From the IMG/VR virus record IMGVR_UViG_3300006217_000024: DNA of 64,000 nt, one strand, 5' to 3'. The stretch is from an uncultured virus (IMG/VR IMGVR_UViG_3300006217_000024) (Duplodnaviria; Heunggongvirae; Uroviricota; Caudoviricetes). A program made the position numbers and the translations under genes. The notes under the pieces are model-generated. The model was not told where the DNA came from. It worked only from the letters and a program-made list of their open reading frames with translations, and ran no database searches. Position 1 is the first letter of the stretch; each line of letters begins with the position of its first letter. Below, piece by piece: positions 13,622 through 62,903 of the stretch.

Positions 13622-14243
13622 CGCACGAAAGACAGATGCATACGGGCGGAAACGCCTAGTCAGCTCCTATGAGTGGCATGGGAGCGAGATAGAGGTATGC
13701 GATTCCGCCCGGAACATCCTGTCCATCATCGAACTCCTCACAGGATATGGTGACCAAGATGATGTGAGCCTGGTCCTAGTGGACAGGCTGCTCTTTGACC
13801 CTCCTGCGGCCTATGAGATTGCAGGAGATGAGATTCACCAGCTCATCTATGACGCCATGTGGGATGTATGCGGCCTTGATGTCACCCCAGACGGTGAGCA
13901 CATGGCCGGAGAAGACGGCGATAAATGGTTCGACTGGGAAGAAGATGCAGACCGCATCCGTAATTCCCTCAGAGCCGCCTATGGCATCTCCTGGGATGAG
14001 ACCTCAGACAACATCACATTCAGCGAAGCGACCTCGCTTATAACCCAGCTTGCTGAGTATGGGGTGAACACCCCCTTCCAACAGGCCGTCCATTACCGAC
14101 TTGGAAAGCCCCCATCGGCAAAGGTAGTGGGCTCTGATGCCGTAGATGCCTGGCATGAGGCCAGGGACTTCTATGAGCTCAAAGGCTCTGACTCCATCTC
14201 CGTGCAGAACGACGGCATAGATGATCTGTTCGAGGTGGCGTGA
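13593..14243 (+). CDS. Gp15-like tail assembly protein
   Basis: FDWEEDADRI...AYGI motif; homolog at 53925. Confidence 0.7.
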   Translation: MRCKPLTTTSARKTDAYGRKRLVSSYEWHGSEIEVCDSARNILSIIELLTGYGDQDDVSLVLVDRLLFDPPAAYEIAGDEIHQLIYDAMWDVCGLDVTPDGEHMAGEDGDKWFDWEEDADRIRNSLRAAYGISWDETSDNITFSEATSLITQLAEYGVNTPFQQAVHYRLGKPPSAKVVGSDAVDAWHEARDFYELKGSDSISVQNDGIDDLFEVA

Positions 14244-17200
14244 TGGCTGACGGTAAGGTAGTCATCCAGATAGACGCCAAGGACTCTAACGCAGTCAATA
14301 GCGCGAAGAAGGTCAAAGGATCCCTCGAAGACATCAAGAAGGCCGACGCGGGACTGAACTGGGCTGGCCTGGATAAGGGCGCAGTTACCGCCGAGCGGTC
14401 TAACGGCATGATAGGTGCCATGAGCGTGGCTCTGGGCAACCTTGCAGCCCAAGGCTTGCAGATGGTGCTCTCTAAGACCACCGAGCTTGCCCAACAAGTG
14501 GTCGAGATAGGCTCCGGTTTCGAGACCTCCATGTCAAAGGTGTCAGCTCTCTCCGGCGCACAGGGAGAGGAACTAGGCCAGCTTGAGACGAAAGCCCGAG
14601 AACTAGGGGCATCCACTACCTTCTCGGCCTCTCAAGCTGCTGATGCTCTGGGATACATGGCTTTAGCCGGTTGGGATACCCAGCAGATGCTCCAGGGCGT
14701 TGATTCGGTGCTCACGCTTGCCCAGGCAGGCGAGATGGACCTCGCCGCTGCCTCTGACCTTGTGACTGACTACCTCTCCGCTTTCGGGATGCAGGCAGAC
14801 GAGACCCAGCGCATGGTGGACGTGCTGGCTTACTCCCAGGCAAACGCCAACACCACCGTTGAGGGGCTAGGTGCAGCCTATAAGAATTGTGCTGCGAACT
14901 GCCATGCCTTCGGCATGGACGTGGAGACCACCTCATCTGCCATTGCCATGATGGCTAACCAAGGTCTCAAGGGGCAAGAAGCAGGTACTGCGCTCAATGC
15001 GGTCATGCGCGATATGACCGCTCGCATGAAAGACGGTGCCATCGCCATCGGGGATACTGCCGTTCAGGTCATGGATGCTGAGGGTAATTATCGTGACTTC
15101 ATCGACATCCTAGCTGACGTTCAAGCGGCCACCGATGGCATGGGAGATGCCGAGAAGGCAGCAGCCCTCCAGTCAACCTTCACGGCTGACAGCATCAAGG
15201 GCCTGAATCTGCTTCTCAACGCTGGGGCCGGAGAAGCGGCAACCTTCCGCGAAGAGCTCTACAACTGCGCAGGCACCGCGCAGGCCACCGCAGACACCAT
15301 GACCAATAATCTCGGTGGCGATGTCGCAGCGATGGGTTCCGCCTTCGAGGAGCTGGCTATCAAGGTCTACCAGGAGCTGCAGGAGCCCCTGAGAGAGACG
15401 GTTCAGTTCATCACCTCCACCGTAGTACCGGGCCTTGAGTGGATGCTCCAGAACCTGGACAAGGTAGGCCCCGTTCTCATAGGCATAGGGTCCGGGTTCG
15501 CTGTCATGGCTAAGGGCGGCAAGGTGATGGATCTACTTCGCGCCTCGCAGCACAACTTCGCCAAGGCCCTGAATGAAACCGAGGTTGCTCATACAAAGCT
15601 GACAGTTAAGCAGACGGCCAACGGCCTAATGCTAACGAAGTTCAATGCGCAAACGAAGCAAGCAACCATCCTGACGAATCAAAGCGCCGCATCAATCAAG
15701 ATGCACATGGCCGCCACCAAAGCATCCGAAACCGCCATGAAGCTCGGCTCTGTCGCCGCACGAACCATGGGCACAGCCATGAAGGCTATTGCTCCTCTTG
15801 CGGTCATGACCGTTTTAGTGGAGCTGGCTACCGTCATCGGAGGAGCTGCTGAAAAGGCCGCTCAGTTCGATAAGGCAACATCCGGCCTCAATGATGCCAT
15901 GAGTGCTGGCGAGAAAGCATTCCAGGATTACAAGGCGAACGCAGAGGCCGCAGCAGAGGCGAATCAGAACATTAAGATATCCGCTGATGAGGTCATAGCA
16001 TCTCAGGCAGAACTGGCCGAAAAGACCGCAGACACATGGGCAGATGCCGGAACGGATGCTGCCGTAGTCCAGACCTACGCAGACACCATGGCTGAGCTTG
16101 CCGATAAGGGAAAGCTCAACGCAGATGAGCAAGCACGCCTTAAGGCCGCTGTAGAGGGATTCAACGAGGCGACCGGTGAGTCCATCGGCATTACCGACCT
16201 TCAAAACGGCAAACTCACCGTTGCCAAGGATAAGGTTTTGGAAATGGCCGAAGCATACAAGCAGGAGGCCATGGCCGAAGCTGCACGAGAACTATACAAA
16301 GAGCACGCCAAACAGCTCGTCCAGGACCAGATGGCGCTTAAAGAAGCCACTGACAAGCTTTCAGCGGCGCAGAAAGAATGCGCCGATGCCGAGCAATATC
16401 TAACAGGTGACGCTCTTACGCCCTATGCCGACGCTGTGAACGCTGCGCAGGCAGAGGTCGACCGCCTCACCCAGGTCACCAATTCTGAGAAGGATGCGCT
16501 GGATCAAGTCTTTTCAGTCATGCAAGAGAACACTGGTGTGTTCGGGACCCTTGAAGAGGCGCTGGGGTCTTGCCAGATCTCCATGGAATCCTTCGGCGAT
16601 ATCTCCGACGCGCAAATCGCTGCGTTACAGAACGGCTTCGACGGCGGTCTTGCATCCATTGTGAACACATGCGCAACGCAAGGGATAGCCATCCCGTCGG
16701 CCCTTGCGAACGCAATCACGGCCAACAGCGGGCTTCCGCAGGGTGAGCAGCAAGCAATGCTTGATGCCATGGTCCTCCAGATGACCGGCGGAGACGTGGC
16801 AGCAGCCGCAGCTGTGCTCGGACACGACATAGATCAGGGTCTTGTTGATGGCATCACAGGAGATGCCGAAATGCCTGCCAGCGCCGTAGGCGTTATGTCT
16901 GATGAGGTCATCAATCGAGCCAAAGAGCATTTCCAAAGCCATTCCCCCTCCCTCGTCATGACCCAGCTTGGCTCCGACATAGACGCAGGTCTTGCCAATG
17001 GCATCAGCGAGAATCAAGGTGGCCCGACTACCGCCATGAGCACCCTGGGTGCTGCGGCGCTCGGAGCCATATCCGGACTCGCTGGCCTCATCGGAGGAGA
17101 GGGCTATGCATCAGCATCTAACCTTGCTGCTGGCATCCAGAGCGGTGTCAACGGAGCGGCCGGAGCGGCCGCAAATGTGGCGAACTCGGCCCTCAGAGGT

Positions 17201-17884
17201 GTAGAAGGTACAAAAGACACCTTCACAAAGGCCGGGCAGAATGCCGTAGATGGTTATGGAAACACCATCGGTGCCGCAGATGCTTACAACCAGGCCCATG
17301 CTCTCGCTGTCACAGCTGAGCGCGGATTGCAAAACTCAGGGGAGGTAGCTCGGAGGCTCGGACAGGATTTCGGGCAGGGTTACGGCCAGGGCATCAGCAG
17401 CAAAGAAAGTTGGGTCTACCAGAAAGCCTATAACCTGGCTCAGCAGGCTGTAAGAGCCGTGCAGAATGCCCAAGATTCGGCATCTCCGTCAAAGGTTGCA
17501 CGGAGCCTGGGACAGGACTTCGGCCAGGGTTATGCGCTCGGCATGCCTGATGAGTACAACCAGGTGACCAAGCTCGCCTCAGGGCTACCAGAGGCCGCTG
17601 TCAAAGCAATCAAGCTGGTGGGTATCCCAACGCTTGATATCAACTATCGTGCCGCTGCCATGGGCAGGTTCGCCCCTGTTCCCCAGCCGGTGATGCAGGC
17701 ATCCACGCCCCAACAGACAGCAACGTCCTCAGATGAGGTCTTATCGGTCCTCAAGGCCATCCTGATAGAGCTGCAACTCCTCCATAAGGGGCTCCCGAAG
17801 ATGCTCATGGATAGCTGCAAGGGAGATGAGATGACCATGCGCGATTTCGCCAGCCTCGTTGAGCTCTCAAAGGAGTACCTATGA
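14243..17884 (+). CDS. Tape measure protein (TP901-type)
   Basis: About 1213 aa, Ala-rich; ARELGASTTFSASQAADAL, GLKGQEAGTAL, HSPS motifs. Confidence 0.95.
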   Translation: MADGKVVIQIDAKDSNAVNSAKKVKGSLEDIKKADAGLNWAGLDKGAVTAERSNGMIGAMSVALGNLAAQGLQMVLSKTTELAQQVVEIGSGFETSMSKVSALSGAQGEELGQLETKARELGASTTFSASQAADALGYMALAGWDTQQMLQGVDSVLTLAQAGEMDLAAASDLVTDYLSAFGMQADETQRMVDVLAYSQANANTTVEGLGAAYKNCAANCHAFGMDVETTSSAIAMMANQGLKGQEAGTALNAVMRDMTARMKDGAIAIGDTAVQVMDAEGNYRDFIDILADVQAATDGMGDAEKAAALQSTFTADSIKGLNLLLNAGAGEAATFREELYNCAGTAQATADTMTNNLGGDVAAMGSAFEELAIKVYQELQEPLRETVQFITSTVVPGLEWMLQNLDKVGPVLIGIGSGFAVMAKGGKVMDLLRASQHNFAKALNETEVAHTKLTVKQTANGLMLTKFNAQTKQATILTNQSAASIKMHMAATKASETAMKLGSVAARTMGTAMKAIAPLAVMTVLVELATVIGGAAEKAAQFDKATSGLNDAMSAGEKAFQDYKANAEAAAEANQNIKISADEVIASQAELAEKTADTWADAGTDAAVVQTYADTMAELADKGKLNADEQARLKAAVEGFNEATGESIGITDLQNGKLTVAKDKVLEMAEAYKQEAMAEAARELYKEHAKQLVQDQMALKEATDKLSAAQKECADAEQYLTGDALTPYADAVNAAQAEVDRLTQVTNSEKDALDQVFSVMQENTGVFGTLEEALGSCQISMESFGDISDAQIAALQNGFDGGLASIVNTCATQGIAIPSALANAITANSGLPQGEQQAMLDAMVLQMTGGDVAAAAAVLGHDIDQGLVDGITGDAEMPASAVGVMSDEVINRAKEHFQSHSPSLVMTQLGSDIDAGLANGISENQGGPTTAMSTLGAAALGAISGLAGLIGGEGYASASNLAAGIQSGVNGAAGAAANVANSALRGVEGTKDTFTKAGQNAVDGYGNTIGAADAYNQAHALAVTAERGLQNSGEVARRLGQDFGQGYGQGISSKESWVYQKAYNLAQQAVRAVQNAQDSASPSKVARSLGQDFGQGYALGMPDEYNQVTKLASGLPEAAVKAIKLVGIPTLDINYRAAAMGRFAPVPQPVMQASTPQQTATSSDEVLSVLKAILIELQLLHKGLPKMLMDSCKGDEMTMRDFASLVELSKEYL

Positions 17885-18729
17885 TCAATGAGATCACATA
17901 CATCAATTCCAGGGGAGACTCCATCACATTCGGCGGAGACGATGCAGGGAACCCCTGGCATTATGGGGTAACAGATATCTTCGACATCAAGCAGGACTAC
18001 GAAGAGCTGGGCGGGAGGATAATCTCCTTCTTGGGAGGCATCAGAGAACTGGGCCTCCATGCCGTCATGCGCAAAGGCTCCCTCGAAGAGCGTGACCGCT
18101 TGGTAGATGTCTTGAGCTATGATTCGAAATTGGCAACGCCAGGGACGCTCTATGCGGGAGAGTCCTACATCAAGTGCTACGCCAAGGATGTGGAACAGAC
18201 GGGCTGGCATTACGCCGAAGGAAGTCTCACAGCGGATATCGTCTTCGTCTCTGATGACCCGGTATGGGTACGCAAGCACGTGATAACGCTCATGGCAGAT
18301 TCCGAACGTCGTGATGGAGGTCTTGACTACCCCCACGATTACCCCTTCGACTACGGGTATTCCTCAGGGACGTCTCGTATCATAGAGAACCCCTATATGC
18401 TCCCGGTCAAGTGCGATATAGCTTTTCCGGGTCCCTGTGCTGACCCCTACGTGATCATCGGTCCTAACCGTTATCAAGTCAAGGCATCCATCAAGAAAGG
18501 GCAGTTGATCATCATCCAAGGATATCCCGTGGAGGGCAGGAAGCGCATCATCCTGCGTGATGTTGACGGCTCAGAGCGGAGCCTGCTGTCAAATGGAGTC
18601 AGGGAAGAGGGTGCTCATGTGTTCGCCGAAGTGCCTGTTGGGAGGCACGTAGCCGCCTGGTCAGGAGCGTATAACATCGAAGTGACCATGTACGAGGAGA
18701 GGCTATCCCCATGCCAGAACCTCTCCTGA
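17881..18729 (+). CDS. Distal tail protein (Dit-like)
   Basis: Follows tape measure; DYPHDYPFDY motif; homolog at 57927. Confidence 0.8.
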   Translation: MINEITYINSRGDSITFGGDDAGNPWHYGVTDIFDIKQDYEELGGRIISFLGGIRELGLHAVMRKGSLEERDRLVDVLSYDSKLATPGTLYAGESYIKCYAKDVEQTGWHYAEGSLTADIVFVSDDPVWVRKHVITLMADSERRDGGLDYPHDYPFDYGYSSGTSRIIENPYMLPVKCDIAFPGPCADPYVIIGPNRYQVKASIKKGQLIIIQGYPVEGRKRIILRDVDGSERSLLSNGVREEGAHVFAEVPVGRHVAAWSGAYNIEVTMYEERLSPCQNLS

Positions 18730-19685
18730 TATACGCAGATCCCTACGGGCATGAGGTCGATACCATCGGGAAATTCAAAGGTGATTTCATCGTTGGTGGA
18801 GATAGGAACGATTTCTCTCTTGATATCCCTGCAAGCATTGGCGTAGCGAAAGACTGGTATTTGATGCTCGATGGCACAGAATTCGGTGGCATCGTTGATG
18901 GATTGGAGATAGACACCTCTCGGAAGTTCGTGACTGCCACAGGAAGGACTTGGCAGGGAATGCTACAAGGCACGGTGATCGTGCCAGATTCCGAACAGTC
19001 TCATCTAGTGCTGAATGGAGACCTCAACACAATCATTGGCGCACTGATAGAGCGTCAAGGCTTTTCTGACAGGATGGCAGCTCCTGATACGCCTTCCGGC
19101 TTCATGGTGGCCAACTACCGCATCAGAAACCGCTATGGCTACGAAGCCATATGCGAGATGTGCGCCTCAGTAGGGGCTAAGCTCATGTTTCGCTATGACG
19201 GATCTATCAGAAAATGCCTGGTCTATGCCACAGCACGCGGAGACTACGTGGATGACGGCATAGATGGCGACTCAGTACGGTTCAAGATCAGGGATCAGCG
19301 CCTAACCAACCACTGGCTAGGTCTCGGGAAGGGTGAAGGTGCCGCCCGTATCGCGGTCAATGGATATGCGGATGCCCAGGGCAATAAGTCACTTAAACAG
19401 GTGCTCTTCGGCGTGCGGCACATCATGGAGATATACGACTCCCCAAGTGCTGAGAAGGAAGACCTGGAAGAGGCCATAGAGAAACGACGAAAAGAAACCC
19501 AGAAGAAGCTGCTGACCTGCTCCCTGAAGGATGCCACATCAGGGGATTACGACATCGGCGATATCGTAGGCGGCAGATCAACACAACACAAGATATCCGT
19601 TGTGACCGAGATAGCCCAGAAGACCGCGAAGGTCACACCGCAGGGAATCGTATGTACCACGAAGACAGCATTGGAGGTTAGCTGA
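18711..19685 (+). CDS. Baseplate hub / Gp37-like minor tail protein
   Basis: GRTWQG, LGKGEGAAR, YDIGDIVG; homolog at 58799. Confidence 0.75.
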   Translation: MPEPLLIYADPYGHEVDTIGKFKGDFIVGGDRNDFSLDIPASIGVAKDWYLMLDGTEFGGIVDGLEIDTSRKFVTATGRTWQGMLQGTVIVPDSEQSHLVLNGDLNTIIGALIERQGFSDRMAAPDTPSGFMVANYRIRNRYGYEAICEMCASVGAKLMFRYDGSIRKCLVYATARGDYVDDGIDGDSVRFKIRDQRLTNHWLGLGKGEGAARIAVNGYADAQGNKSLKQVLFGVRHIMEIYDSPSAEKEDLEEAIEKRRKETQKKLLTCSLKDATSGDYDIGDIVGGRSTQHKISVVTEIAQKTAKVTPQGIVCTTKTALEVS

Positions 19686-19933
19686 TGGCAATCGAAGAGG
19701 GAGGGATGTTCCGCTGTGACCGAAGCCCTCAAGCCCACAAAGACGGCAAGCCCCATAATGAATTCCTCAACCCTACAGATAAGCGCCGGAGTGACTGGTT
19801 GGAAGTTTCCTGGGAGGATGTCATGGGAGTGACGATCAAGTATCTCATCTGCCCCGAATGCCGAAAGGAATACGAAGCCATTAGACAGGAGCAGCGCCAG
19901 AAGATGCAGAACTACATGTACCTCGGACAGTAA
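19685..19933 (+). CDS. Small Cys-containing protein before tail fibre
   Basis: ICPECRK; positional and sequence counterpart at 59834. Confidence 0.65.
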   Translation: MAIEEGGMFRCDRSPQAHKDGKPHNEFLNPTDKRRSDWLEVSWEDVMGVTIKYLICPECRKEYEAIRQEQRQKMQNYMYLGQ

Positions 19934-19942
19934 GGGATAACA

Positions 19943-20749
19943 ATGCCACACCTGGTCACATCACATCAAGGCGAAGACCATGTTGAATCCTACAATGACC
20001 GACACTACAACGCCGGGCATATCGGCAATGACTCCTATGCCTTCAAGGGTCGTGGGAATTTCGCTTGCTCGATGGTGGATTCGAACACCCTGCGCATCAT
20101 GTCTGGTGATGCTCAGTGTTGCGGAGCTCATTGGTCCATTGATTCTGATTATGAGGAATACACCATCGAGACCGGAACTCCTGGATACAAGCGTACCGAC
20201 CTAGTAGTTGCACACATCGAAACCGCGCCCCAAGAGACCATGGATATCCGTGTGCTCAAGGGCGAGGAGACCACCGGAACGCCCGTCACACCCTCCTATA
20301 TCGAAGGAGATCTGAACGCTGGCGATACTGTGGTGGAAATGCCTCTCTGTAGTGTGGAGCTTAATGGCATCAATCCAGGTCAGCCCAATATGTTGCTTGA
20401 TTTCTTGGTGCCATACAAGGAGTTTTGTGATTCCCTATCACAAAAGATGGAAATAGCCTGCGAGGACGTGATCGTCACCGTGAACCCGGTCACCAACATT
20501 AATAAAACGACCGGGCAACCCAATCCCGTAGTATTACCCTTCAGGAAAGTAACAGCTAGTAACTTCCTCGGTCGCCAGATGTTGAAAGCATGGCCCCGAA
20601 CCACATGGACCCCAGCGGGAGGATCACAGCCTATAGTTACAATGAGCGTAGGCTCGGGCGGTTTTGTATACAACCAGGCAGTTTTCGTTTCTAACCACTC
20701 GCAGCTTTACGAAATCTATGTCCGGGCTTGGTACTTACCGAACAAGTAA
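19943..20749 (+). CDS. Tail fibre/receptor-binding protein: constant N-terminus (163 aa) plus switchable cassette A (105 aa)
   Basis: N-terminus similar to 60067 (HLVT...HV, R-x-DLVV); unrelated after CDSLSQ; crossover core at 20431-20437. Confidence 0.85.
   Translation: MPHLVTSHQGEDHVESYNDRHYNAGHIGNDSYAFKGRGNFACSMVDSNTLRIMSGDAQCCGAHWSIDSDYEEYTIETGTPGYKRTDLVVAHIETAPQETMDIRVLKGEETTGTPVTPSYIEGDLNAGDTVVEMPLCSVELNGINPGQPNMLLDFLVPYKEFCDSLSQKMEIACEDVIVTVNPVTNINKTTGQPNPVVLPFRKVTASNFLGRQMLKAWPRTTWTPAGGSQPIVTMSVGSGGFVYNQAVFVSNHSQLYEIYVRAWYLPNK
20423..20445 (+). repeat. Recombination site S1 (expressed): TTTTGTGA-TTCCCTA-TCACAAAA
   Basis: Perfect 8-bp inverted arms around a 7-bp asymmetric core, in frame as GAT TCC CTA. 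Confidence 0.85.
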
Positions 20750-20767
20750 TTGATCCTATGTAGGCCT

Positions 20768-21067
20768 CTATTGCTTGCCCTGTACAGCAAGTACACCATA
20801 GGCTTGCCAATCGAACTTGCCCGCGTGAGCGAATGCGCCCCCATTGCGCACTTTGACCCGGAAGCCAGTCTCCGTGATGGAAAAGGGCGTGAACTCCATG
20901 TCCTTCGCTGTTTCAGGGGTCATAAGTCCGTCAAATGCGAGGCTAACACTCACTAAAGGAGGGTATCTGTAAGCCTTCGGGAACGATATAACTTCCGACT
21001 CTCTTGTGTTATTGGCTGGACAATCTACCCGGCCTTGGTCTGACTGCCTTCCATCCTGTAATAGGGA
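20768..21067 (-). CDS. Silent tail-fibre cassette B (99 aa, no start codon), H-type-lectin/gp53-like
   Basis: Open from core: SLLQDGRQ...ISFPKAYRYPPLVSVS...ITETGFRVKV...FDWQAYG...KQ*. Confidence 0.8.
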   Translation of the reverse strand, partial: SLLQDGRQSDQGRVDCPANNTRESEVISFPKAYRYPPLVSVSLAFDGLMTPETAKDMEFTPFSITETGFRVKVRNGGAFAHAGKFDWQAYGVLAVQGKQ

Positions 21068-21074
21068 ATAACTA
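21057..21074 (-). repeat. Recombination site S2: TAGTTA-TTCCCTA-TTACA (core 21062-21068)
   Basis: Same core, inverted relative to S1. Confidence 0.85.
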
Positions 21075-21353
21075 ATCTGGGATGAATATTACCCACAACC
21101 GATAGCGCACCACCTGCGAGACTGGAACCCGGATCGTTGCACCATCTCTTAAAGATGCAGCCGCCATAAAGCCGCCGCTGTATGCCATCAGGTCTTCAGA
21201 CTCACATACGGGAACGAAGGTGCCCTTTGCATCCAGGTTCAGCCCTAGATCATTGCGCAGTTGCTCGGGGGAGATGACAACCCTGCTTGTATGAGCTTGA
21301 AACGTTAGGGCATTCGTGTAAAAAGCGACGCGGGTTCGGGTCTGTTCTAGGGA
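21072..21353 (-). CDS. Silent tail-fibre cassette C (93 aa, no start codon; absent from ORF track)
   Basis: Open from core: SLEQTRTRVAFYTNAL...SQVVRYRLWVIFIPD*; stop abuts S2. Confidence 0.8.
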   Translation of the reverse strand, partial: SLEQTRTRVAFYTNALTFQAHTSRVVISPEQLRNDLGLNLDAKGTFVPVCESEDLMAYSGGFMAAASLRDGATIRVPVSQVVRYRLWVIFIPD

Positions 21354-21360
21354 ATAACTA
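21343..21360 (-). repeat. Recombination site S3: TAGTTA-TTCCCTA-GAACA (core 21348-21354)
   Basis: Same core, inverted relative to S1. Confidence 0.85.
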
Positions 21361-21543
21361 CAATGTGCGACTCATTATCGTTTTCCCGTTTTTCTGGATA
21401 GTAATCTGCGCGTATTCGCTTTGCGCCCATAGCTGCCCATACAGGTCTCCGTTTGTTATGCCTATTTGAAAAGCTTTATCAGTCACGGCAAATGTCAGTC
21501 TGCTGAGTTTGCTAATGAGTGTCTGTACTTCTTGCGATAGGGA
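21358..21543 (-). CDS. Silent tail-fibre cassette D (61 aa, no start codon)
   Basis: SLSQEVQTLISK...KTIMSRTL*; begins at core S4, stop abuts S3. Confidence 0.8.
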   Translation of the reverse strand, partial: SLSQEVQTLISKLSRLTFAVTDKAFQIGITNGDLYGQLWAQSEYAQITIQKNGKTIMSRTL

Positions 21544-21550
21544 ATCACGC
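21531..21550 (-). repeat. Recombination site S4: GCGTGA-TTCCCTA-TCGCAAG (core 21538-21544)
   Basis: Same core; the TGA in the arm is the recombinase stop codon. Confidence 0.85.
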
Positions 21551-22255
21551 GGCCATCGGAAGCTCTCTCGCCGGTTGCGGTGCAGGCTGTGGCGGGATGA
21601 TGCCCTTGTACATGTCATCGCAGCTTTTACCAAGCACCAATCGGGCAAGCCTGCGCTGCACCCGTCGCTTGGTCGCAGCAGTGATCTCCATGTAGTATCG
21701 GTAGCAGGTCTGGATATTGCTGTGTCCCATCATCTCAGCCACGTGCTCAATGGCTGCTCCGGCCTTGATCTCTACCGCACCAGTGCGCCAGTCGATGGAT
21801 TCCCAGCTGAGATAGTAGTTCTCGGAGGGACGCAACCCCAAGGCGCTCTGCAGGATTAAGGTCGGTTCAAATAGATGTCCGACAAAGCCGCGGATAAGCT
21901 TTTTCAGGCGACGCTGCGTAAGCGTGTTGAGAGGCTCTTGAGGCTTTTGGGTAATCTCGATCCTCCGTGTGGGGTCTATGGCCTCCAAGCCCTCATCTAT
22001 CGCCCACCGGATGATCTGTCTGAGGCATTTGTACGCCTTCTCTGCGCCTGATGGTCCGCGCAATGGTGTCAACTCGTCAACCCACGCTTGCACATCCTTA
22101 CGCGTGATCTCGCTAACCCTGAGCGCACCCCAGCGTGGCAATACGTGACGGTTGATGGATGACTCGTAGCCGTAAACGGTATCGGGCTTTCTGCGCTCAC
22201 GTTTCTCGGTGAGGTAGTCATTGCAAATCTCGGTGATGGTGCTCAGTTCGTACAT
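21545..22255 (-). CDS. Tyrosine recombinase (shufflon-type invertase candidate) with internal deletion
   Basis: N-terminal core-binding domain, GLRPSE, MGHSNIQTCYRYY; no HxxR segment; AAAGGAGG RBS before ATG 22255. Confidence 0.85.
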   Translation of the reverse strand: MYELSTITEICNDYLTEKRERRKPDTVYGYESSINRHVLPRWGALRVSEITRKDVQAWVDELTPLRGPSGAEKAYKCLRQIIRWAIDEGLEAIDPTRRIEITQKPQEPLNTLTQRRLKKLIRGFVGHLFEPTLILQSALGLRPSENYYLSWESIDWRTGAVEIKAGAAIEHVAEMMGHSNIQTCYRYYMEITAATKRRVQRRLARLVLGKSCDDMYKGIIPPQPAPQPARELPMAA

Positions 22256-22269
22256 AGCTCCTCCTTTGA

Positions 22270-22314
22270 GTGACAGCAGGCGCATCATCTGAGATGCGAC
22301 ATGTGGAGGATTAT
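22270..22314 (+). promoter_or_regulatory. Two tandem late-promoter motifs before holin
   Basis: GTGACAG-CAGGCGC-ATCAT (prophage 2 type) and GCGACAT-GTGGAGG-ATTAT (prophage 1 type). Confidence 0.55.
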
Positions 22315-22342
22315 GTGGCCGTCACGAGCGAAAGGAGAGATT

Positions 22343-22780
22343 GTGGACTGGGTTACAGCAATAGCCTGGCAGCCGATTTTGGTGATAGTCGTGCTGATGG
22401 CGTTCGACATCATCACCGGCTTCGGCGGAGCCGCAAAGGAGGGTGTCATCCAATCAGGCAAGATGCGCGAGGGGCTATGGCATAAAGCGGGATTCCTGGG
22501 GTTGGTCGTCCTTGCGATCATCTGGGAAGTCGCGGTGCTGTGGATCAATTTCGACGCCTATCTAAAGGGCGCGGGCACCATCGTGCCGGAGTTCCCGGCG
22601 GTTTCCGTTGTGTGCGCATTCATAGCCTTGATCGAACTAATAAGCATCGTCGAGAACCTATGCGTACTCAACCCATCGATCGCGACTCTGCCCTTCATAA
22701 AGCAGCTGAAGGCTCACGATCCAGCGGCCCCGGACATCAAGGTCGAGGTTGATGACGGCGACACACGCACAGACGAGTAG
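22343..22780 (+). CDS. Holin (Phage_holin_4_1-like)
   Basis: DIITG...SGKMREGLWHK...ELISIVENL; hydrophobic segments; AAAGGAG RBS before GTG. Confidence 0.9.
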   Translation: MDWVTAIAWQPILVIVVLMAFDIITGFGGAAKEGVIQSGKMREGLWHKAGFLGLVVLAIIWEVAVLWINFDAYLKGAGTIVPEFPAVSVVCAFIALIELISIVENLCVLNPSIATLPFIKQLKAHDPAAPDIKVEVDDGDTRTDE

Positions 22781-23060
22781 CCCTACAGCCAGTCAAGAGC
22801 GGCGCGTGATGCTGATCGCGGCGCTGCTTGCCTTTGGTATGGTGGCCCTTGTCATGGCCATACGCCTCGGGTCGTGGTTTCTCGCGCCCGCTGAGGTGCC
22901 ACCAGAGCCAGAGACGCTCCCTGCTGTTGATCTGCCCCTCCTCACGCCCCTGCAGCGCGAGGAGGCCCGCAGAAGCGGCGTGGGTGCTTATGAGTTTGAC
23001 GGCATGTGGTATGTAAACGCGGCTTTGCCGCCTGAACACTGGGAGGACTGGATTGGCTAA
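22749..23060 (+). CDS. Membrane-anchored protein in lysis module (start uncertain)
   Basis: One hydrophobic segment; lies between holin and endolysin. Confidence 0.55.
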   Translation: MMTATHAQTSSPTASQERRVMLIAALLAFGMVALVMAIRLGSWFLAPAEVPPEPETLPAVDLPLLTPLQREEARRSGVGAYEFDGMWYVNAALPPEHWEDWIG

Positions 23061-23880
23061 GCTATACATCATCTGCGGACATGGTGCCGGTGACCCTGGA
23101 GCCTGTGCTGCAGGACAGACCGAGGCCGACAACGTACGCACGCTAGCGGCACGGATCAAGGAGCTTGGAGGCTCTGAGGTCAACGTCCTGGACACAGGGC
23201 GCAACTGGTATGCCGATGCAGGCATCAACAAGCTGAGCATCTCCAAAGGCTCGGCTCTGCTTGAGTTGCACATGGACTCAGCAGTTGAGACCGCACGGGG
23301 CGGGCATGTCATCATCAAGTCAGGCTATGATGCTGATGACTGGGACAAGGCGCTAGCAGCTGGGATAGCCGCGATTCTGCCCGGGCGTGCTGAGACCATC
23401 GTACATCGCAACAACCTCGCCAACGTCAACCGAGCGGCAGCGCGCGGCATCAACTACCGCCTTCTGGAGACAGGATTCATCAGTAACGAGGATGATCGGA
23501 ATATCTTCAATGACCGCCTTGACGATATCGCACACGTCATCCTGGCATCGTTCGGTATCGGTTCTCATGATGATATCGAGCCGTCTCCGAGCGCACCAGC
23601 CACAGATAGCGACGGCTTCGGTGGCACATACCGCTGCCAGGTCGACGGCTTGCGCGTGCGCACGGGCCCCGGCCTCTCCTACGCCCAGGCTAAGGATGCG
23701 AACGGCAATCTGGTCTGCTACAACAAGGGTGGCGAGGTCATACTGGATGATTGGTTCAGGTCGGCTGACGGCTATATCTGGGGCAGGTATACCGGAGCGC
23801 AAAGCGGCCAGCTGCGATACGTGGCGGTTGGAAAAGCTACCGGCAAGCCGGAGCCTGATGACTTCCTGGTCAAGGTCTAA
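23053..23880 (+). CDS. Endolysin: N-acetylmuramoyl-L-alanine amidase plus SH3-like wall-binding domain
   Basis: GHGAGDPGA, ELHMD, LLETGFISN; C-terminal LRVRTGPG...DGYIWGRY. Confidence 0.92.
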   Translation: MAKLYIICGHGAGDPGACAAGQTEADNVRTLAARIKELGGSEVNVLDTGRNWYADAGINKLSISKGSALLELHMDSAVETARGGHVIIKSGYDADDWDKALAAGIAAILPGRAETIVHRNNLANVNRAAARGINYRLLETGFISNEDDRNIFNDRLDDIAHVILASFGIGSHDDIEPSPSAPATDSDGFGGTYRCQVDGLRVRTGPGLSYAQAKDANGNLVCYNKGGEVILDDWFRSADGYIWGRYTGAQSGQLRYVAVGKATGKPEPDDFLVKV

Positions 23881-24952: not shown

Positions 24953-26065
24953 TCAGAGGGCCTCGTCGAAGGCCCGGTCTATGAGGGCCGTGTCGCGCTT
25001 CAGGTCTTTCAGACGGGGCTTCACGTAGCGGTTGTAGGTGGTGCTCACATCAGCGTGCCCCATCCACTTGGCGAGCTTGGCCACCTCTATCCCAGCGTCG
25101 ATGCAGGCCGTCCCGAACGAGTGACGCATAGAGAAGATCGTGATGTGCGGAAGGGGCTCTCCGTCATCGAACCTGAGACCGGCGTTGAAGATCTTGTCGA
25201 TGCGCTTGTAGCCCGTCTGGGGCTTCATGCGGCCGCCGTCCCGCCCCTTCACGATAGGCCCGCTCTCCCCCTCTAGAAGCTCCCCCAAGCGCTCGCGCAG
25301 ATAGCGGAACGCTGGGACCTCCCGGAACCCCGCAGGGGTCTTCGGGTCGTCGAGGCCCGCGCCTCCTTCCTTTCGGACGCAGGTCTGCTCCACGCAGAGG
25401 CCCCCGTCCTCCGCGCTCCGCCTCTCGCAGTCCGCGGCGAACACCTCGCCCTTGCGCAGGCCGTAGCCCAGCCCCAGAAGGCAGATGCGCTCCTCAGGCG
25501 TGTCCGGGTAGTGCTCGGCCATGAAGTCCAGGACGCGCTGGATCTCGGCGAAGGTGGACAGCCACGCCCCGCCCTCGTTCTTGGGATGCTTGGTGGCGGC
25601 CGGATAGCGGAAGCGGCAGCTCGCGGGGTTGAACGTGAGCACCTGCATCTCGCAGGCCAAGGAGAAGACGGACGACGCGGTCTCGCGGGCGTTCGTGGCC
25701 ACCTTCTTGGTGGGGCAGCCGTCTATCATCTTCTGCACGTCGAAGCGGTTGATGTCCTCCATGGGCATGGGGCCGAACGCCGGCAGGATGCGGTTGTTCA
25801 GATCCCGCCGGTAGCACCGCTTCGTGTCATAGCGCAAGCCCTCCTTCTGGGGCCAGAAGTACTGCTCGACGAACTCTCCGAAGGGGATGCCGCCGTAGGA
25901 CTTGCCGCGCCGGATCTCCTTGAGCGCCAGGAGACGCCGCTCCTCTTTCTCGGCCTTCGCCTTGGTGCTGAACTGAGGCTGCCGGCGGTCCCTCGTGCCG
26001 TCCAGGCGCTTGCCGAGCGTGACGTCAGCGACCCAGAGGCCGCTCTCCAGCTTCCGCACTGCCAT
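24953..26065 (-). CDS. int: Prophage 2 tyrosine integrase
   Basis: GLRKGE, PKT, SMRHSF, MGHADVSTTYNRY; adjacent to att. Confidence 0.93.
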   Translation of the reverse strand: MAVRKLESGLWVADVTLGKRLDGTRDRRQPQFSTKAKAEKEERRLLALKEIRRGKSYGGIPFGEFVEQYFWPQKEGLRYDTKRCYRRDLNNRILPAFGPMPMEDINRFDVQKMIDGCPTKKVATNARETASSVFSLACEMQVLTFNPASCRFRYPAATKHPKNEGGAWLSTFAEIQRVLDFMAEHYPDTPEERICLLGLGYGLRKGEVFAADCERRSAEDGGLCVEQTCVRKEGGAGLDDPKTPAGFREVPAFRYLRERLGELLEGESGPIVKGRDGGRMKPQTGYKRIDKIFNAGLRFDDGEPLPHITIFSMRHSFGTACIDAGIEVAKLAKWMGHADVSTTYNRYVKPRLKDLKRDTALIDRAFDEAL

Positions 26066-26165
26066 GATGCTACAATGCTCCTGTCTGGCCCTTCGTGGGC
26101 CGTCGTGTGCGAAGCCCCGTGCATCCGCCAAGATTCAGCGGGGCTTCTCCTTTGCTCCTACCCGA

Positions 26166-27182
26166 TCACGTTGTCAGCTCGCTGAGCACCGCGATCCCCT
26201 CATGCACGCACCCTCTAGACGCGACATTGAGCAACGCGCTCCAATCATCCGGCACGCCTACGACGCGCAGCAGATCACCACGCGCCTCAAGATACGGATC
26301 CACGACCTCCTTCAAGTCGAACCAAAGCCGAAACGAGTACAGCAGGTTCACATCAAGGAATCTGATCCTGGCTGAGAGCAAGCGGCCCAAGATGAACACC
26401 ACGTAGAAGGTCGATCGAGTTTCGGCGTCCAGCCCCCTGATCGCTATAGGAGTGCTCGGGATCTCCTTCCGCACAACATAGGGATCAAAATGAGCACAGG
26501 TATTGCGCACCGATACCACGGTCTTCGTCCAATTGGTGAGTTCCGCACGAGAGACCCCAAAGAAGGCAGCAACGGTATCGCTCACGCCCTCGACCTTGGT
26601 GTTCGAGATCAGCTTGCTCAAGGTTCCCAATGTCATGCATTCGACCGCGTCCCGTACGGGGAGGCGGAAGCCGTCAGCGTCGCTGCGCACAAAACTCCTG
26701 ATAATGGGGTCCTTGCTTCTCTGAGCCTCCCTGCGCAGTGAAGCCATCGAACTCTCATAGTGCCGCGCATTGAAGAAGTTTGCGGCATCATACAGCGCCA
26801 TCTTCCCCGCACGCTCCTCAAGCCAGTGCGCATACTGCGCCCGAAGTTGGCCTTCGAGGATACCGATGTACTTGAACACTACCGCCTGGAAGCGCCTGTC
26901 AAAGGCAAGCAGATCATGGGCGTCTTTGATCATCGGCTTGTCCTGCCCCGAAATGCGCTTTGCTGCGCGGAGGTAAGGCAGCATGTGCCGGTAGCTGACG
27001 CGCTCCAACATGAAGACAGCCTCGACGGTATCCGAATCAGTGAAACCCTGCGACCTGAGCTCGTTCACGAAGCTCTCATAGGATCCAGGGACCGAATAAG
27101 ACACGGCCGAGGGATTTCCACTTGCATTGCTGCTAGAAGTGCCCTCGGCTCTATCGCTGCCTATGTTACCACGGTTCTTCAT
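26166..27182 (-). CDS. Abi family (AbiD/AbiF-like, HEPN) protein
   Basis: LERVSY, FDRRF...IGILE, TLGTLSKL, VRNTCAH (R-x4-H). Confidence 0.85.
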   Translation of the reverse strand: MKNRGNIGSDRAEGTSSSNASGNPSAVSYSVPGSYESFVNELRSQGFTDSDTVEAVFMLERVSYRHMLPYLRAAKRISGQDKPMIKDAHDLLAFDRRFQAVVFKYIGILEGQLRAQYAHWLEERAGKMALYDAANFFNARHYESSMASLRREAQRSKDPIIRSFVRSDADGFRLPVRDAVECMTLGTLSKLISNTKVEGVSDTVAAFFGVSRAELTNWTKTVVSVRNTCAHFDPYVVRKEIPSTPIAIRGLDAETRSTFYVVFILGRLLSARIRFLDVNLLYSFRLWFDLKEVVDPYLEARGDLLRVVGVPDDWSALLNVASRGCVHEGIAVLSELTT

Positions 27183-59833: not shown

Positions 59834-60070
59834 ATGGGTGTTACTTCTGGATACTCAGAGTACGTATGCGAGGGCTGCGACGAGCTGGCCATGATCAAGG
59901 ACGATGACAACACCGCCAAGAACAAGTGGCAGGAGATCGAGCGTGTGACCGCTGATGGGCAGCACATCAAGCGGATGCTGTGCGAGAAGTGCCGCAAGGC
60001 CTACAGCCCCTTTGCTGCTGAACAGGACGCCGCCTTCAACGCCTTCATGGCCTCTCGCAGGAGCGCATGA
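59834..60070 (+). CDS. Small zinc-finger-like protein before tail fibre
   Basis: CEGC...LCEKCRK. Confidence 0.65.
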   Translation: MGVTSGYSEYVCEGCDELAMIKDDDNTAKNKWQEIERVTADGQHIKRMLCEKCRKAYSPFAAEQDAAFNAFMASRRSA

Positions 60071-60918
60071 TGGAGATCGTAACCGGCTTCCAGGGGAAGA
60101 ACCACGTCACCGCCCAGCAGCTCTCTCGCCTGATCTCCGGCTTAGCAGGAGACGAGACCTATGTCCTTGACACGCAGGACCAGCTGGCGATAGAAGTTGT
60201 CTCAGCCAACAAGGTGACCATAGCCACAGGCGATCTGATTGCTCAAGGCACCTACTTCACCAACGAGGCCCCCGAGGATCTGGTGATCGAGAACGGCGTA
60301 ACGGGTCTGAACCGCAACGATCTCATCGTCTGCAGGTACGAGAAGGCGGAACCTGCAGTCGACGAAGATGGGAATCCGGACTACACGATTCCGCGTATCG
60401 AAAGCGGTGACTGGGCTGTGGTGAAAGGCACGCCCTCCTCAGGCACCCCAGAAGACCCGTCGGTCGTCACTGCATCCCTTCAGGATCCGAACACGTCCCT
60501 GGCAGAGTTCCCCGTTTACCGTATTCCGATACGCGGGCTGTCTGTAGGGACACCCGAGCGGATACCCCCGGTGATCCCCTCTATGCGTGAAGCTTGTGAT
60601 TCCCTATCACAAACGCTCGAAGGCACATGGCAGCGCATCTCTGGAGGCAAGGGAAACGGACAGTGGTTCAATAGTCCGCTTCTTGGCGCCACGAAAATCA
60701 TCCTCGCAGTCGAACATGATGCTCACGAGTCATTGATTGTTTGGCGCACGGTCACCCTCGAAGAGCTGGAGCAGGCGAACGCATCAAATCCAGTGGTTGT
60801 ATCATCCTTGATCGAGCCGCAGACCTACTCCATCTCAGCATACATTTCGAATGGAAACATATATGGAAAGAACGCAAATCCGAACTTTGCGACAGTATGG
60901 ATCTATGGACTCGTGTAG
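60067..60918 (+). CDS. Tail fibre/receptor-binding protein: constant N-terminus plus switchable cassette A' (105 aa)
   Basis: Similar to 19943 up to CDSLSQ; core at 60600-60606. Confidence 0.85.
   Translation: MMEIVTGFQGKNHVTAQQLSRLISGLAGDETYVLDTQDQLAIEVVSANKVTIATGDLIAQGTYFTNEAPEDLVIENGVTGLNRNDLIVCRYEKAEPAVDEDGNPDYTIPRIESGDWAVVKGTPSSGTPEDPSVVTASLQDPNTSLAEFPVYRIPIRGLSVGTPERIPPVIPSMREACDSLSQTLEGTWQRISGGKGNGQWFNSPLLGATKIILAVEHDAHESLIVWRTVTLEELEQANASNPVVVSSLIEPQTYSISAYISNGNIYGKNANPNFATVWIYGLV
60594..60612 (+). repeat. Recombination site S1': TTGTGA-TTCCCTA-TCACAA
   Basis: Same core and inverted arms as S1. Confidence 0.85.
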
Positions 60919-61196
60919 ATGGTCATATGGCATAGGGGGATGCAGAGCAGATCAACCGTTGGGCGAACCGTATGCGCGCCGCTTATGAGATTCCTAATAC
61001 GTCCAGATATAGCATTCTCATAGAGAAGACATCTGGTTATCACGGCATCGGCTGAATACGAATCAAACCCCGCGATACCCATTACCCTGTAGTCTTCCTG
61101 GATCTTCGTGATGTCGACGGAAAAGACCTCGGCACCGTTAGGCCTAAGGGCAATATCACCCGCCGCAACACTGATTCTGGTGGACTGTAATAGGGA
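60903..61196 (-). CDS. Silent tail-fibre cassette B' (97 aa, no start codon; absent from ORF track)
   Basis: Open from core: SLLQSTRISVAAGDIAL...VDLLCIPLCHMTIYTSP*. Confidence 0.78.
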   Translation of the reverse strand, partial: SLLQSTRISVAAGDIALRPNGAEVFSVDITKIQEDYRVMGIAGFDSYSADAVITRCLLYENAISGRIRNLISGAHTVRPTVDLLCIPLCHMTIYTSP

Positions 61197-61203
61197 ATAA
61201 CTA
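61185..61203 (-). repeat. Recombination site S2': TAGTTA-TTCCCTA-TTACAG (core 61191-61197)
   Basis: Matches S2 over both arms. Confidence 0.85.
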
Positions 61204-61386
61204 CAATGTGCGACTCATTATCGTTTTCCCGTTTTTCTGGATAGTAATCTGCGCGTATTCGCTTTGCGCCCATAGCTGCCCATACAGGTCTCCGTTTGTT
61301 ATGCCTATTTGAAAAGCTTTATCAGTCACGGCAAATGTCAGTCTGCTGAGTTTGCTAATGAGTGTCTGTACTTCTTGCGATAGGGA
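61201..61386 (-). CDS. Silent tail-fibre cassette D (same as prophage 1)
   Basis: SLSQEVQTL...MSRTL*; core at 61381-61387. Confidence 0.8.
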   Translation of the reverse strand, partial: SLSQEVQTLISKLSRLTFAVTDKAFQIGITNGDLYGQLWAQSEYAQITIQKNGKTIMSRTL

Positions 61387-61387
61387 A

Positions 61388-62098
61388 TCACGCGGCCATC
61401 GGAAGCTCTCTCGCCGGTTGCGGTGCAGGCTGTGGCGGGATGATGCCCTTGTACATGTCATCGCAGCTTTTACCAAGCACCAATCGGGCAAGCCTGCGCT
61501 GCACCCGTCGCTTGGTCGCAGCAGTGATCTCCATGTAGTATCGGTAGCAGGTCTGGATATTGCTGTGTCCCATCATCTCAGCCACGTGCTCAATGGCTGC
61601 TCCGGCCTTGATCTCTACCGCACCAGTGCGCCAGTCGATGGATTCCCAGCTGAGATAGTAGTTCTCGGAGGGACGCAACCCCAAGGCGCTCTGCAGGATT
61701 AAGGTCGGTTCAAATAGATGTCCGACAAAGCCGCGGATAAGCTTTTTCAGGCGACGCTGCGTAAGCGTGTTGAGAGGCTCTTGAGGCTTTTGGGTAATCT
61801 CGATCCTCCGTGTGGGGTCTATGGCCTCCAAGCCCTCATCTATCGCCCACCGGATGATCTGTCTGAGGCATTTGTACGCCTTCTCTGCGCCTGATGGTCC
61901 GCGCAATGGTGTCAACTCGTCAACCCACGCTTGCACATCCTTACGCGTGATCTCGCTAACCCTGAGCGCACCCCAGCGTGGCAATACGTGACGGTTGATG
62001 GATGACTCGTAGCCGTAAACGGTATCGGGCTTTCTGCGCTCACGTTTCTCGGTGAGGTAGTCATTGCAAATCTCGGTGATGGTGCTCAGTTCGTACAT
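61388..62098 (-). CDS. Tyrosine recombinase with internal deletion (same as 21545-22255)
   Basis: Identical translation. Confidence 0.85.
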   Translation of the reverse strand: MYELSTITEICNDYLTEKRERRKPDTVYGYESSINRHVLPRWGALRVSEITRKDVQAWVDELTPLRGPSGAEKAYKCLRQIIRWAIDEGLEAIDPTRRIEITQKPQEPLNTLTQRRLKKLIRGFVGHLFEPTLILQSALGLRPSENYYLSWESIDWRTGAVEIKAGAAIEHVAEMMGHSNIQTCYRYYMEITAATKRRVQRRLARLVLGKSCDDMYKGIIPPQPAPQPARELPMAA

Positions 62099-62185
62099 AG
62101 CTCCTCCTTTGAGTGACAGCAGGCGCATCATCTGAGATGCGACATGTGGAGGATTATGTGGCCGTCACGAGCGAAAGGAGAGATT

Positions 62186-62623
62186 GTGGACTGGGTTACA
62201 GCAATAGCCTGGCAGCCGATTTTGGTGATAGTCGTGCTGATGGCGTTCGACATCATCACCGGCTTCGGCGGAGCCGCAAAGGAGGGTGTCATCCAATCAG
62301 GCAAGATGCGCGAGGGGCTATGGCATAAAGCGGGATTCCTGGGGTTGGTCGTCCTTGCGATCATCTGGGAAGTCGCGGTGCTGTGGATCAATTTCGACGC
62401 CTATCTAAAGGGCGCGGGCACCATCGTGCCGGAGTTCCCGGCGGTTTCCGTTGTGTGCGCATTCATAGCCTTGATCGAACTAATAAGCATCGTCGAGAAC
62501 CTATGCGTACTCAACCCATCGATCGCGACTCTGCCCTTCATAAAGCAGCTGAAGGCTCACGATCCAGCGGCCCCGGACATCAAGGTCGAGGTTGATGACG
62601 GCGACACACGCACAGACGAGTAG
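62186..62623 (+). CDS. Holin
   Basis: Identical to 22343-22780. Confidence 0.9.
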   Translation: MDWVTAIAWQPILVIVVLMAFDIITGFGGAAKEGVIQSGKMREGLWHKAGFLGLVVLAIIWEVAVLWINFDAYLKGAGTIVPEFPAVSVVCAFIALIELISIVENLCVLNPSIATLPFIKQLKAHDPAAPDIKVEVDDGDTRTDE

Positions 62624-62903
62624 CCCTACAGCCAGTCAAGAGCGGCGCGTGATGCTGATCGCGGCGCTGCTTGCCTTTGGTATGGTGGCCCTTGTCATGG
62701 CCATACGCCTCGGGTCGTGGTTTCTCGCGCCCGCTGAGGTGCCACCAGAGCCAGAGACGCTCCCTGCTGTTGATCTGCCCCTCCTCACGCCCCTGCAGCG
62801 CGAGGAGGCCCGCAGAAGCGGCGTGGGTGCTTATGAGTTTGACGGCATGTGGTATGTAAACGCGGCTTTGCCGCCTGAACACTGGGAGGACTGGATTGGC
62901 TAA
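62592..62903 (+). CDS. Membrane-anchored protein in lysis module
   Basis: Identical to 22749-23060. Confidence 0.55.
   Translation: MMTATHAQTSSPTASQERRVMLIAALLAFGMVALVMAIRLGSWFLAPAEVPPEPETLPAVDLPLLTPLQREEARRSGVGAYEFDGMWYVNAALPPEHWEDWIG

Follow-up and report, generated by a model that had tools for sequence, protein, structure and literature searches.

A Rin-type multi-cassette inversion switch of a receptor-binding protein in two tandem prophages, most likely locked in the stretch analyzed

The stretch of DNA analyzed here, hereafter the window, comprises 64,000 nucleotides (64 kb) of IMG/VR record IMGVR_UViG_3300006217_000024, an uncultured virus of the Caudoviricetes. In the window the integrase gene of a first prophage (24953-26131) is followed by the repressor and replication genes of a second, and the window therefore consists of two tandem prophages. 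Positions 19943 to 22255, in prophage 1, hold a receptor-binding protein (RBP) gene, a series of alternative tips for its product and a tyrosine recombinase gene. We use the names introduced for the Rin shufflon of Bifidobacterium prophages: Rc for the constant part of the RBP, Rv for the tips, rix for the crossover sites and Rin for the recombinase. The features of the locus are as follows.

19943..20430, plus strand: Rc, the constant N-terminal part of the prophage 1 RBP, extending over 163 aa to the core
20423..20445, plus strand: rix S1, consisting of an 8-bp arm, the 7-bp core TTCCCTA (20431-20437) and an 8-bp inverted arm
20438..20749, plus strand: cassette A (Rv-A), the tip expressed in the window, in frame with Rc
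20768..21061, minus strand: cassette B (Rv-B), silent in the window, 97 aa past the core
21062..21068, minus strand: rix S2 core
21072..21347, minus strand: cassette C (Rv-C), silent in the window, 91 aa past the core
21348..21354, minus strand: rix S3 core, also the left edge of a stretch identical between the prophages
21358..21537, minus strand: cassette D (Rv-D), silent in the window, 59 aa past the core, with an identical copy at 61201-61380
21538..21544, minus strand: rix S4 core, abutting the rin stop codon
21545..22255, minus strand: rin, the shufflon tyrosine invertase gene, carrying an in-frame deletion of 264 bp; its product has 236 aa, compared with 324 in the intact form

The layout given in a preliminary description of this locus was reproduced in full. 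The S1 core lies on the plus strand between perfect 8-bp inverted arms, TTTTGTGA and TCACAAAA, and is read D-S-L as codons 163-165 of an open reading frame of 268 aa (19943-20749). A motif count across the window finds the same core inverted at 21062, 21348 and 21538, where it opens start-less minus-strand frames in the same phase, of 99 (B), 93 (C) and 61 aa (D). The stop codon of B (20768-20770) lies tail-to-tail with A, and the frames of C (TAG at 21072-21074) and D (21358-21360) both terminate as TAG-TTA directly ahead of the next core. The tyrosine recombinase frame comes next on the minus strand, its TGA stop abutting the S4 core. The GC content of the cassette region is 50%, compared with 60% for the window.

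The bare 7-mer TTCCCTA has seven matches in the window against 3.62 expected, and 12 of 100 shuffled sequences reach seven, so this count is not significant. The 11-mer GTKATTCCCTA fits all seven sites, with 0.02 copies expected in the window and none of 100 shuffles reaching seven; four copies lie in prophage 1 and three in a second system at 60.6-61.4 kb. On the other side of the core the arm is TYRC at six of the seven sites and GAAC at S3. The open frames alone are weak evidence, because in a window of 60% GC the fractions of positions open for at least 61, 93 and 99 codons are 31, 22 and 20%, respectively, with a product of ~0.014.

The prophage 1 locus stands as described; a second copy of the system, in prophage 2, was not noted in the preliminary description. 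Its features are listed below.

60067..60918, plus strand: Rc' fused to cassette A', with the rix S1' core at 60600-60606
60903..61387, minus strand: cassette B' (60903-61190), rix S2' (61191-61197), cassette D (61201-61380) and rix S3' (61381-61387)
61388..62098, minus strand: second rin copy, with the identical 264-bp deletion

Prophage 1 has four sites and four tips, and prophage 2 has three of each, in the order Rc', A', B', D, rin and holin, with A' and B' being its own. The constant part of Rc' (60067-60599) is 28% identical to Rc and matches the same PHROGs. A stretch of 1731 bp (21348-23078 and 61191-62921) is 100% identical in the two prophages. It begins exactly at a rix core and holds tip D, the deleted rin, the holin gene and the start of the endolysin gene, inside which the prophages diverge. 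Identity of this kind suggests that the co-resident prophages recently underwent gene conversion or exchange. The rix-core edge of the module was considered as proof of Rin-mediated exchange between the prophages and was rejected as such, because homology necessarily ends where the neighboring cassettes differ.

In three IMG/VR or MAG-type assemblies of near-identical sequence (contigs L002, L005 and L006) a prophage-2-type endolysin region is joined to a prophage-1-type shufflon across the shared module, as seen by comparison with 61.6-64.0 kb and 18.6-21.8 kb of the window. Either these joins are real recombinants, or they are chimeras that arose when assembly ran through the 1.7-kb repeat.

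That a tyrosine recombinase gene follows the cassettes, as the preliminary description stated, is correct as regards its presence, but neither copy is intact: 88 residues of the catalytic domain are missing from both. The gene starts with the ATG at 22255, 5 bases past the AAGGAGGAG stretch. A Pfam search of its 236-aa product detected the SAM-like and central DNA-binding domains and the catalytic domain only as a 23-bit remnant. Among 120 listed Rin homologs, 117 are 306-358 aa in length. One of these proteins, P0001, has 324 aa, is 99% identical to the window Rin and is intact, with SAM-like, central and catalytic domains all present. The nearest genome among those compared, an Eggerthellaceae metagenome-assembled genome (MAG) of the mouse catalogue, likewise encodes the intact form, and comparison with its DNA shows 264 bp, between ATCAAGG and ATTAAGG, to be missing from the window. 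The deletion junction lies at 21763-21770 and has a 4-base microhomology, AAGG (6 of 7 bases alike). The same junction is present in IMG/VR contig L006, and rin is intact in IMG/VR contig L005.

Alignment to XerA (4a8e) places the deletion at residues 165-252. It covers the R-N-L-R-H motif, which aligns with the H-x-L-R-H motif of XerA, and the K-hairpin region; the first arginine, the late histidine and the tyrosine are still present. From general knowledge of the family we take R-N-L-R-H to contain the second catalytic arginine and the hairpin region to contain the catalytic lysine. The missing 264 bp were found nowhere in the 64-kb window, and the only other tyrosine recombinase encoded there is the prophage integrase, which has 392 aa and is 23% identical to Rin. 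The window probably lacks a competent invertase, residues 165-252 being absent from both copies. Since the catalytic lysine region and second arginine are missing from both, the switch is probably locked, most likely as Rc-A in prophage 1 and as Rc'-A' in prophage 2. The locus is a member of the Rin shufflon family by descent but probably not a working one.

Aberrant Rin sequences also occur elsewhere. Four of the 15 best Rin matches are of this kind: P0012 has lost a different in-frame segment, between two W-A-I-D repeats, and belongs to the allele lineage of the window (it shares the C-terminal E); the C termini of P0013 and P0014 diverge, and P0015 is cut short. Some of these alleles may be assembly products.

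The locus is contained in 18 runs, of which 14 are mouse gut or mouse metagenomes and four have a coded organism label, and named Rc homologs come from Adlercreutzia and Parvibacter. The host is a mouse-gut bacterium of the Eggerthellaceae, the same family as Eggerthella lenta.

Alternative arrangements were sought in assembled Logan contigs of four of the 18 runs. In run X15, a 10.2-kb contig contains the two reciprocal junctions left by an S1-S2 inversion, in the order Rc, core, tip B, inverted A, core, end of C. The inversion joint lies within 9 bases common to S1 and S2, and there is no other mismatch. A short contig of run X1 joins Rc to tip D at a depth of 3, compared with ~9 for the main form; its single mismatch coincides with a difference between the right arms of S4 and S1. 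Run X4 has the same Rc-D junction. In prophage 2 of X4 the start of A' adjoins the end of rin, which is the product of an S1' by S3' inversion, and X4 also contains a molecule Rc-A-B-D-rin that lacks C, representing a deletion or variant between directly oriented sites. In X4 and X15, C adjoins rin, an order that two successive inversions can yield. Contigs break at rix sites in all four runs, and intact rin is present in all four.

Protein sequences contain the same junctions. P0121 (224 aa) is exactly Rc plus D, with 100% identity over the 59 aa of the tip. P0241 consists of a prophage-2-type constant part fused at D-S-L to a tip 95% identical to C, P0242 of the same type of constant part with a tip 86% identical to B, and P0243 of an unrelated, fibrous type of constant part that bears a B-like tip and has a junction of the TTCCATA type. 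Tips A, B and D have each been seen fused to the Rc of prophage 1, and C only on a prophage-2-type constant part. The preliminary description had proposed inversion between S1 and S2, S3 or S4, and had named the lack of any alternative arrangement in reads or relatives, together with cassette frames not kept open in homologs, as the finding that would overturn it. The X15 inversion, the Rc-D fusions and the C and B-like tips on relatives support the proposed mechanism, and alternative junctions do exist in both contigs and proteins. Of the further claim that four alternative tips are available to a constant part of ~163 aa, the part that stands is that four tips are encoded; switching among them in this genome is probably not possible.

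Run X15 contains a second C-like cassette with four base differences (21130, 21157, 21188 and 21196) within window positions 21056-21230. In X14 and X15 alike there is a contig whose loose end at 21056 corresponds to the beginning of the B' cassette of prophage 2. Should this contig continue into C, prophage 2 of those strains would carry a C-type tip next to B' that is absent from prophage 2 of the window, where the C-type tip was possibly lost between direct sites.

An AlphaFold2 model of Rc-A had a predicted local distance difference test score (pLDDT) of 73-93 for residues 10-160 and below 50 for tip A. A Foldseek search of the PDB with this model gave no match at E ≤0.001; the best-ranked entries were a phi812 baseplate protein and the RBPs of phages 1358 (E = 1.7e-3) and p2. 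The fold assignment rests on VIA-align, in which Rc matched the 1358 RBP (4l92_B) with a Z-score of 12.9 and a root mean square deviation of 4.6 over 147 aligned residues, the phi812 baseplate protein with a Z-score of 12.9, and the p2 RBP with Z-scores of 11.5-11.9 (2bsd_A, 11.9). All three matches span model residues 4-167. On the evidence of the model, Rc folds like the shoulders of lactococcal phage RBPs, and from its position cassette A would be the binding head. Rc also matches PHROGs 9994, 13141 and 25635, all of unknown function. When the two window proteins were aligned with 35 Rc homologs, picked by hand from throughout the 120 listed, the first ~165 residues proved to be conserved, with similarity ending exactly at the junction motif C/R-D-S/Y-L/K-S-Q.

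The tips themselves are dissimilar. When the cassettes were compared with one another, the best similarity, over 21 residues, reached only E 0.009, as expected of Rv tips, and in a comparison with the 120 listed Rc homologs no match was found for A, B, C, A' or B', D alone being matched; the B and C tips of relatives were located later through dedicated searches. Pfam gave no family for Rc-A, Rc'-A', P0121, C or B'. Tip B had a weak match to the H-type lectin family (H_lectin; E = 2.5e-4, 21.5 bits against a cut-off of 24), and a search with it also matched multi-repeat lectin-like proteins.

An RBP variant found on four public contigs, P0122 (186 aa), has one extra T right after the core (window 20431-20445). 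Tip A is therefore out of frame, and the protein is truncated 21 residues on. The extra T is not present in L001, L002 or L006.

Taken together, we propose that the locus would operate as follows. Rc ends at rix, an asymmetric 7-bp core TTCCCTA with short inverted arms, and on the opposite strand three promoterless, start-less tips, all in the same phase, each begin at an inverted rix and stop just before the next one. Rin, an armless Xer-like tyrosine recombinase encoded beside the tips, would be the catalyst, swapping strands inside the core between the site in Rc and any of the inverted sites. The DNA between the two sites would flip, fusing Rc to another tip; successive flips would permute the cassettes, and events between directly oriented sites could delete one. 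The exchanged tips would presumably alter host range. The resulting reading is of a Rin-type multi-cassette inversion switch for the RBP of siphovirus-like prophages, present in two tandem prophages and most likely locked in the window. We give this reading a probability of about 0.85.

The locus is a member of a known family, and no new class of system needs to be invoked. The preliminary description knew of no account of this site or system in phages of this host group, a statement now superseded, for the system has been published as the Rin shufflon (PMC6109161, PMC8778435). As described in the 2018 report of Mavrich et al. (PMC6109161), dnaJ2-integrated prophages of B. breve and B. longum have a constant Rc that is a distant relative of the phage 1358 RBP, dissimilar Rv tips and an 11-bp rix, TTCCCTAACCC. 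Their Rin is a tyrosine invertase organized like XerD, with no arm-binding domain and distinct from the integrase; comparison of prophage with virion DNA showed inversions, and a defective rin, with a stop codon, is known from Bl30698phi1 (PMC6109161). The features shared with the window are an Rc with an internal crossover site, dissimilar start-less tips each preceded by a site, a flanking armless tyrosine invertase that is not the prophage integrase, kinship of Rc with the 1358 RBP, and a defective rin allele. The first 7 of the 11 bases of TTCCCTAACCC (TTCCCTA) are identical at all seven sites of the window, whereas the last 4 differ. The two systems also differ in that the host here is one of the Eggerthellaceae, the arms of S1 are perfect inverted repeats of 8 bp, every spare tip in the present state lies inverted with respect to Rc, two tandem prophages share one identical rin-D module, and the rin defect is an in-frame deletion found in both copies.

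The sequence TAATTGATCCTATG at 20747-20760, just past the stop codon of tip A, by eye resembles the TAG-TTA-core ends of C and D minus one base. It may be a decayed site in direct orientation, comparable to the one that Mavrich et al. report as following the full-length RBP gene.

A Rin shufflon with the repeat ttccgtat and H-type lectin tips was described in 2022 in clade 1 prophages of E. lenta (PMC8778435). The window resembles it in bacterial family, layout and lectin tips (here only the weak match of tip B) and differs in the middle base of the core, which is G in the published repeat and C here. Relatives use TTCCGTA or TTCCATA, so that the site varies within the family, and with the published sites included the core reads TTCC-N-TA, with N being C, G or A in different systems. 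In L007 the Rin is 55% identical to that of the window, the layout is the same with four copies of TTCCATA, and the junction reads N-S-I-F-Q. Bifidobacterium phage PMBT6 encodes a 35% identical recombinase (E = 9e-34), with TTCCGTA occurring four times around its gene; it is annotated as an integrase despite its position in the tail module. L004, an Eggerthella MAG, has a 60% identical Rin, with rin split over two frames, and another Rc family; its nine site matches, against 5.4 expected, are not above chance. In L003 the Rin is 85% identical, and the contig stops right after the first site and so is silent on the cassettes. Rin loci with cores differing only in the middle base lie at L007 1919-2851, L008 5341-6358 and L004 4922-5601, the core of L004 being probably TTCCATA. 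An armless tyrosine recombinase beside the RBP locus, distinct from the prophage integrase, is a feature that the window shares with the family; intact relatives of its Rin align with XerA 4a8e, and the two copies in the window are deletion derivatives. A blastn search of the locus against 50,697 phage records found no match.

The R64/IncI shufflon is plasmid-borne and comprises the recombinase Rci, sfx sites with a 7-bp core, multiple invertible segments and alternative pilV tips. It shares with the window a tyrosine recombinase, the 7-bp core, the multiple invertible segments and the alternative C termini on an adhesin-like protein, but its setting is a plasmid and a pilus adhesin, whereas here it is a prophage tail module and an RBP. 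On these grounds, and as no Rci-specific family in NCBIfam matched Rin, we did not assign the locus to the R64 type. NCBIfam gave nothing above its curated cut-off for Rin, the families returned being Xer-like and tyrosine recombinases only. The Gin (Mu), Cin (P1) and Min (p15B) systems also switch tail-fiber tips by DNA inversion, Min handling several segments. Their invertases are serine recombinases, as stated by Mavrich et al. (PMC6109161); the window Rin gave tyrosine recombinase families only in Pfam and NCBIfam, and a serine-invertase switch was rejected.

Several points weigh against the interpretation as a locked Rin shufflon. The run evidence consists of contigs, not raw reads, and three of the four runs are metagenomes in which strains may mix, X15 bearing an organism label; frequencies and single-cell switching are therefore not readable from it. 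Inversion is not seen everywhere, since the near-identical assemblies that cover the locus, L001/L002, L005 and L006, all have the cassette order of the window, two of these three carrying intact rin. The bases after the core are TCAC, TTAC, GAAC or TCGC, compared with ACCC in the Bifidobacterium rix. Homology of Rin to the published Rin of Bb423phi1 is putative, the 35% identity to the PMBT6 recombinase being indirect evidence. The view of cassette A as a binding head rests on position, because its model had low confidence. We know of no enzymology of any Rin.

Two further reservations concern the lock, and each leads to an alternative. First, rin was searched for in the 64-kb window, and with the rest of the genome lying outside it an intact rin could sit elsewhere. 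The shufflon might then still switch by means of a recombinase acting in trans, either an intact rin on a third prophage or a prophage integrase, an explanation that we consider unlikely. Intact rin alleles circulate in the same habitat, in four of four runs, and Mavrich et al. discuss trans-acting invertases for another locus (PMC6109161). Against this, both rin copies in the window are deleted, the lost segment is absent from the window, and the one other tyrosine recombinase is only 23% identical. Integrases, moreover, normally need their own att sites.

Second, both copies lie in the 100% identical stretch of 1731 bp, which an assembler could collapse and copy, so that one deleted repeat may have been copied into both places. 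The 264-bp deletion would then be an assembly or consensus artifact, the real rin of the strain being intact as it is in all four runs. We regard this as quite improbable, given that the same junction is found in contig L006, that a microhomology of 4 bases (6 of 7 alike) is far below any assembly word, and that the deletion is in frame with clean flanks.

That the cores are scars of modular exchange by homologous recombination, with no site-specific inversion and with junctions that are chimeras of strain mixtures, would suit the three metagenomic runs and the visibly mosaic MAG and IMG/VR contigs in which a prophage-2-type lysin is joined to the prophage-1 shufflon, but is very hard to reconcile with the X15 contig, where both reciprocal junctions of a conservative inversion are present and the exchange falls inside 9 shared bases, far less homology than homologous recombination needs, or with the dedicated recombinase that adjoins the array in every relative examined.

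Within the locked-shufflon reading, it is conceivable, if doubtful, that rix acts as a shared docking point for the trade of tips among co-resident or related prophages, and that recurrent in-frame rin deletions then freeze the tip. Behind this suggestion stand the single rin/rix/tip-D module, which starts exactly at a rix core and serves constant parts only 28% identical; the occurrence of prophage 1 tips C and B on a prophage-2-type constant part and of a B-like tip on an unrelated fibrous part; and two different rin deletions in one allele lineage, each of which keeps the DNA-binding half.

Rin shufflons are a little-studied host-range hedge of temperate gut phages, and this locus is a clean natural example in mouse-gut Eggerthellaceae, for which public data show the three spare tips in use. 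The site with perfect inverted arms is suited to a biochemical test, and the natural pair of intact and catalytically deleted alleles would permit switching and locked lysogens to be compared. The variation of the middle core base among C, G and A hints at a means that could keep co-resident shufflons apart.

The genes around the prophage 1 locus belong to the upstream tail module (14240..19933) and the downstream lysis module (22301..23880).

14240-17884, plus strand: tape measure gene, tail module
17881-18729, plus strand: gene for a 282-aa protein in the distal-tail position, with no family match, tail module
18711-19685, plus strand: minor tail protein gene, tail module
19685-19933, plus strand: gene for an 82-aa Cys-rich protein, directly upstream of Rc
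22301-22780, plus strand: holin gene, lysis module
23053-23880, plus strand: amidase endolysin gene, lysis module

In both prophages a small Cys-rich protein with C-x-x-C pairs is encoded directly 5' of Rc (19685-19933, 82 aa; 59834-60070, 78 aa), and of the two only the prophage 2 protein matches a PHROG, of unknown function. Between the prophage 1 integrase gene and the prophage 2 repressor gene lies an Abi-like gene (26166-27182) that matches PHROG 2158, abortive infection resistance protein.

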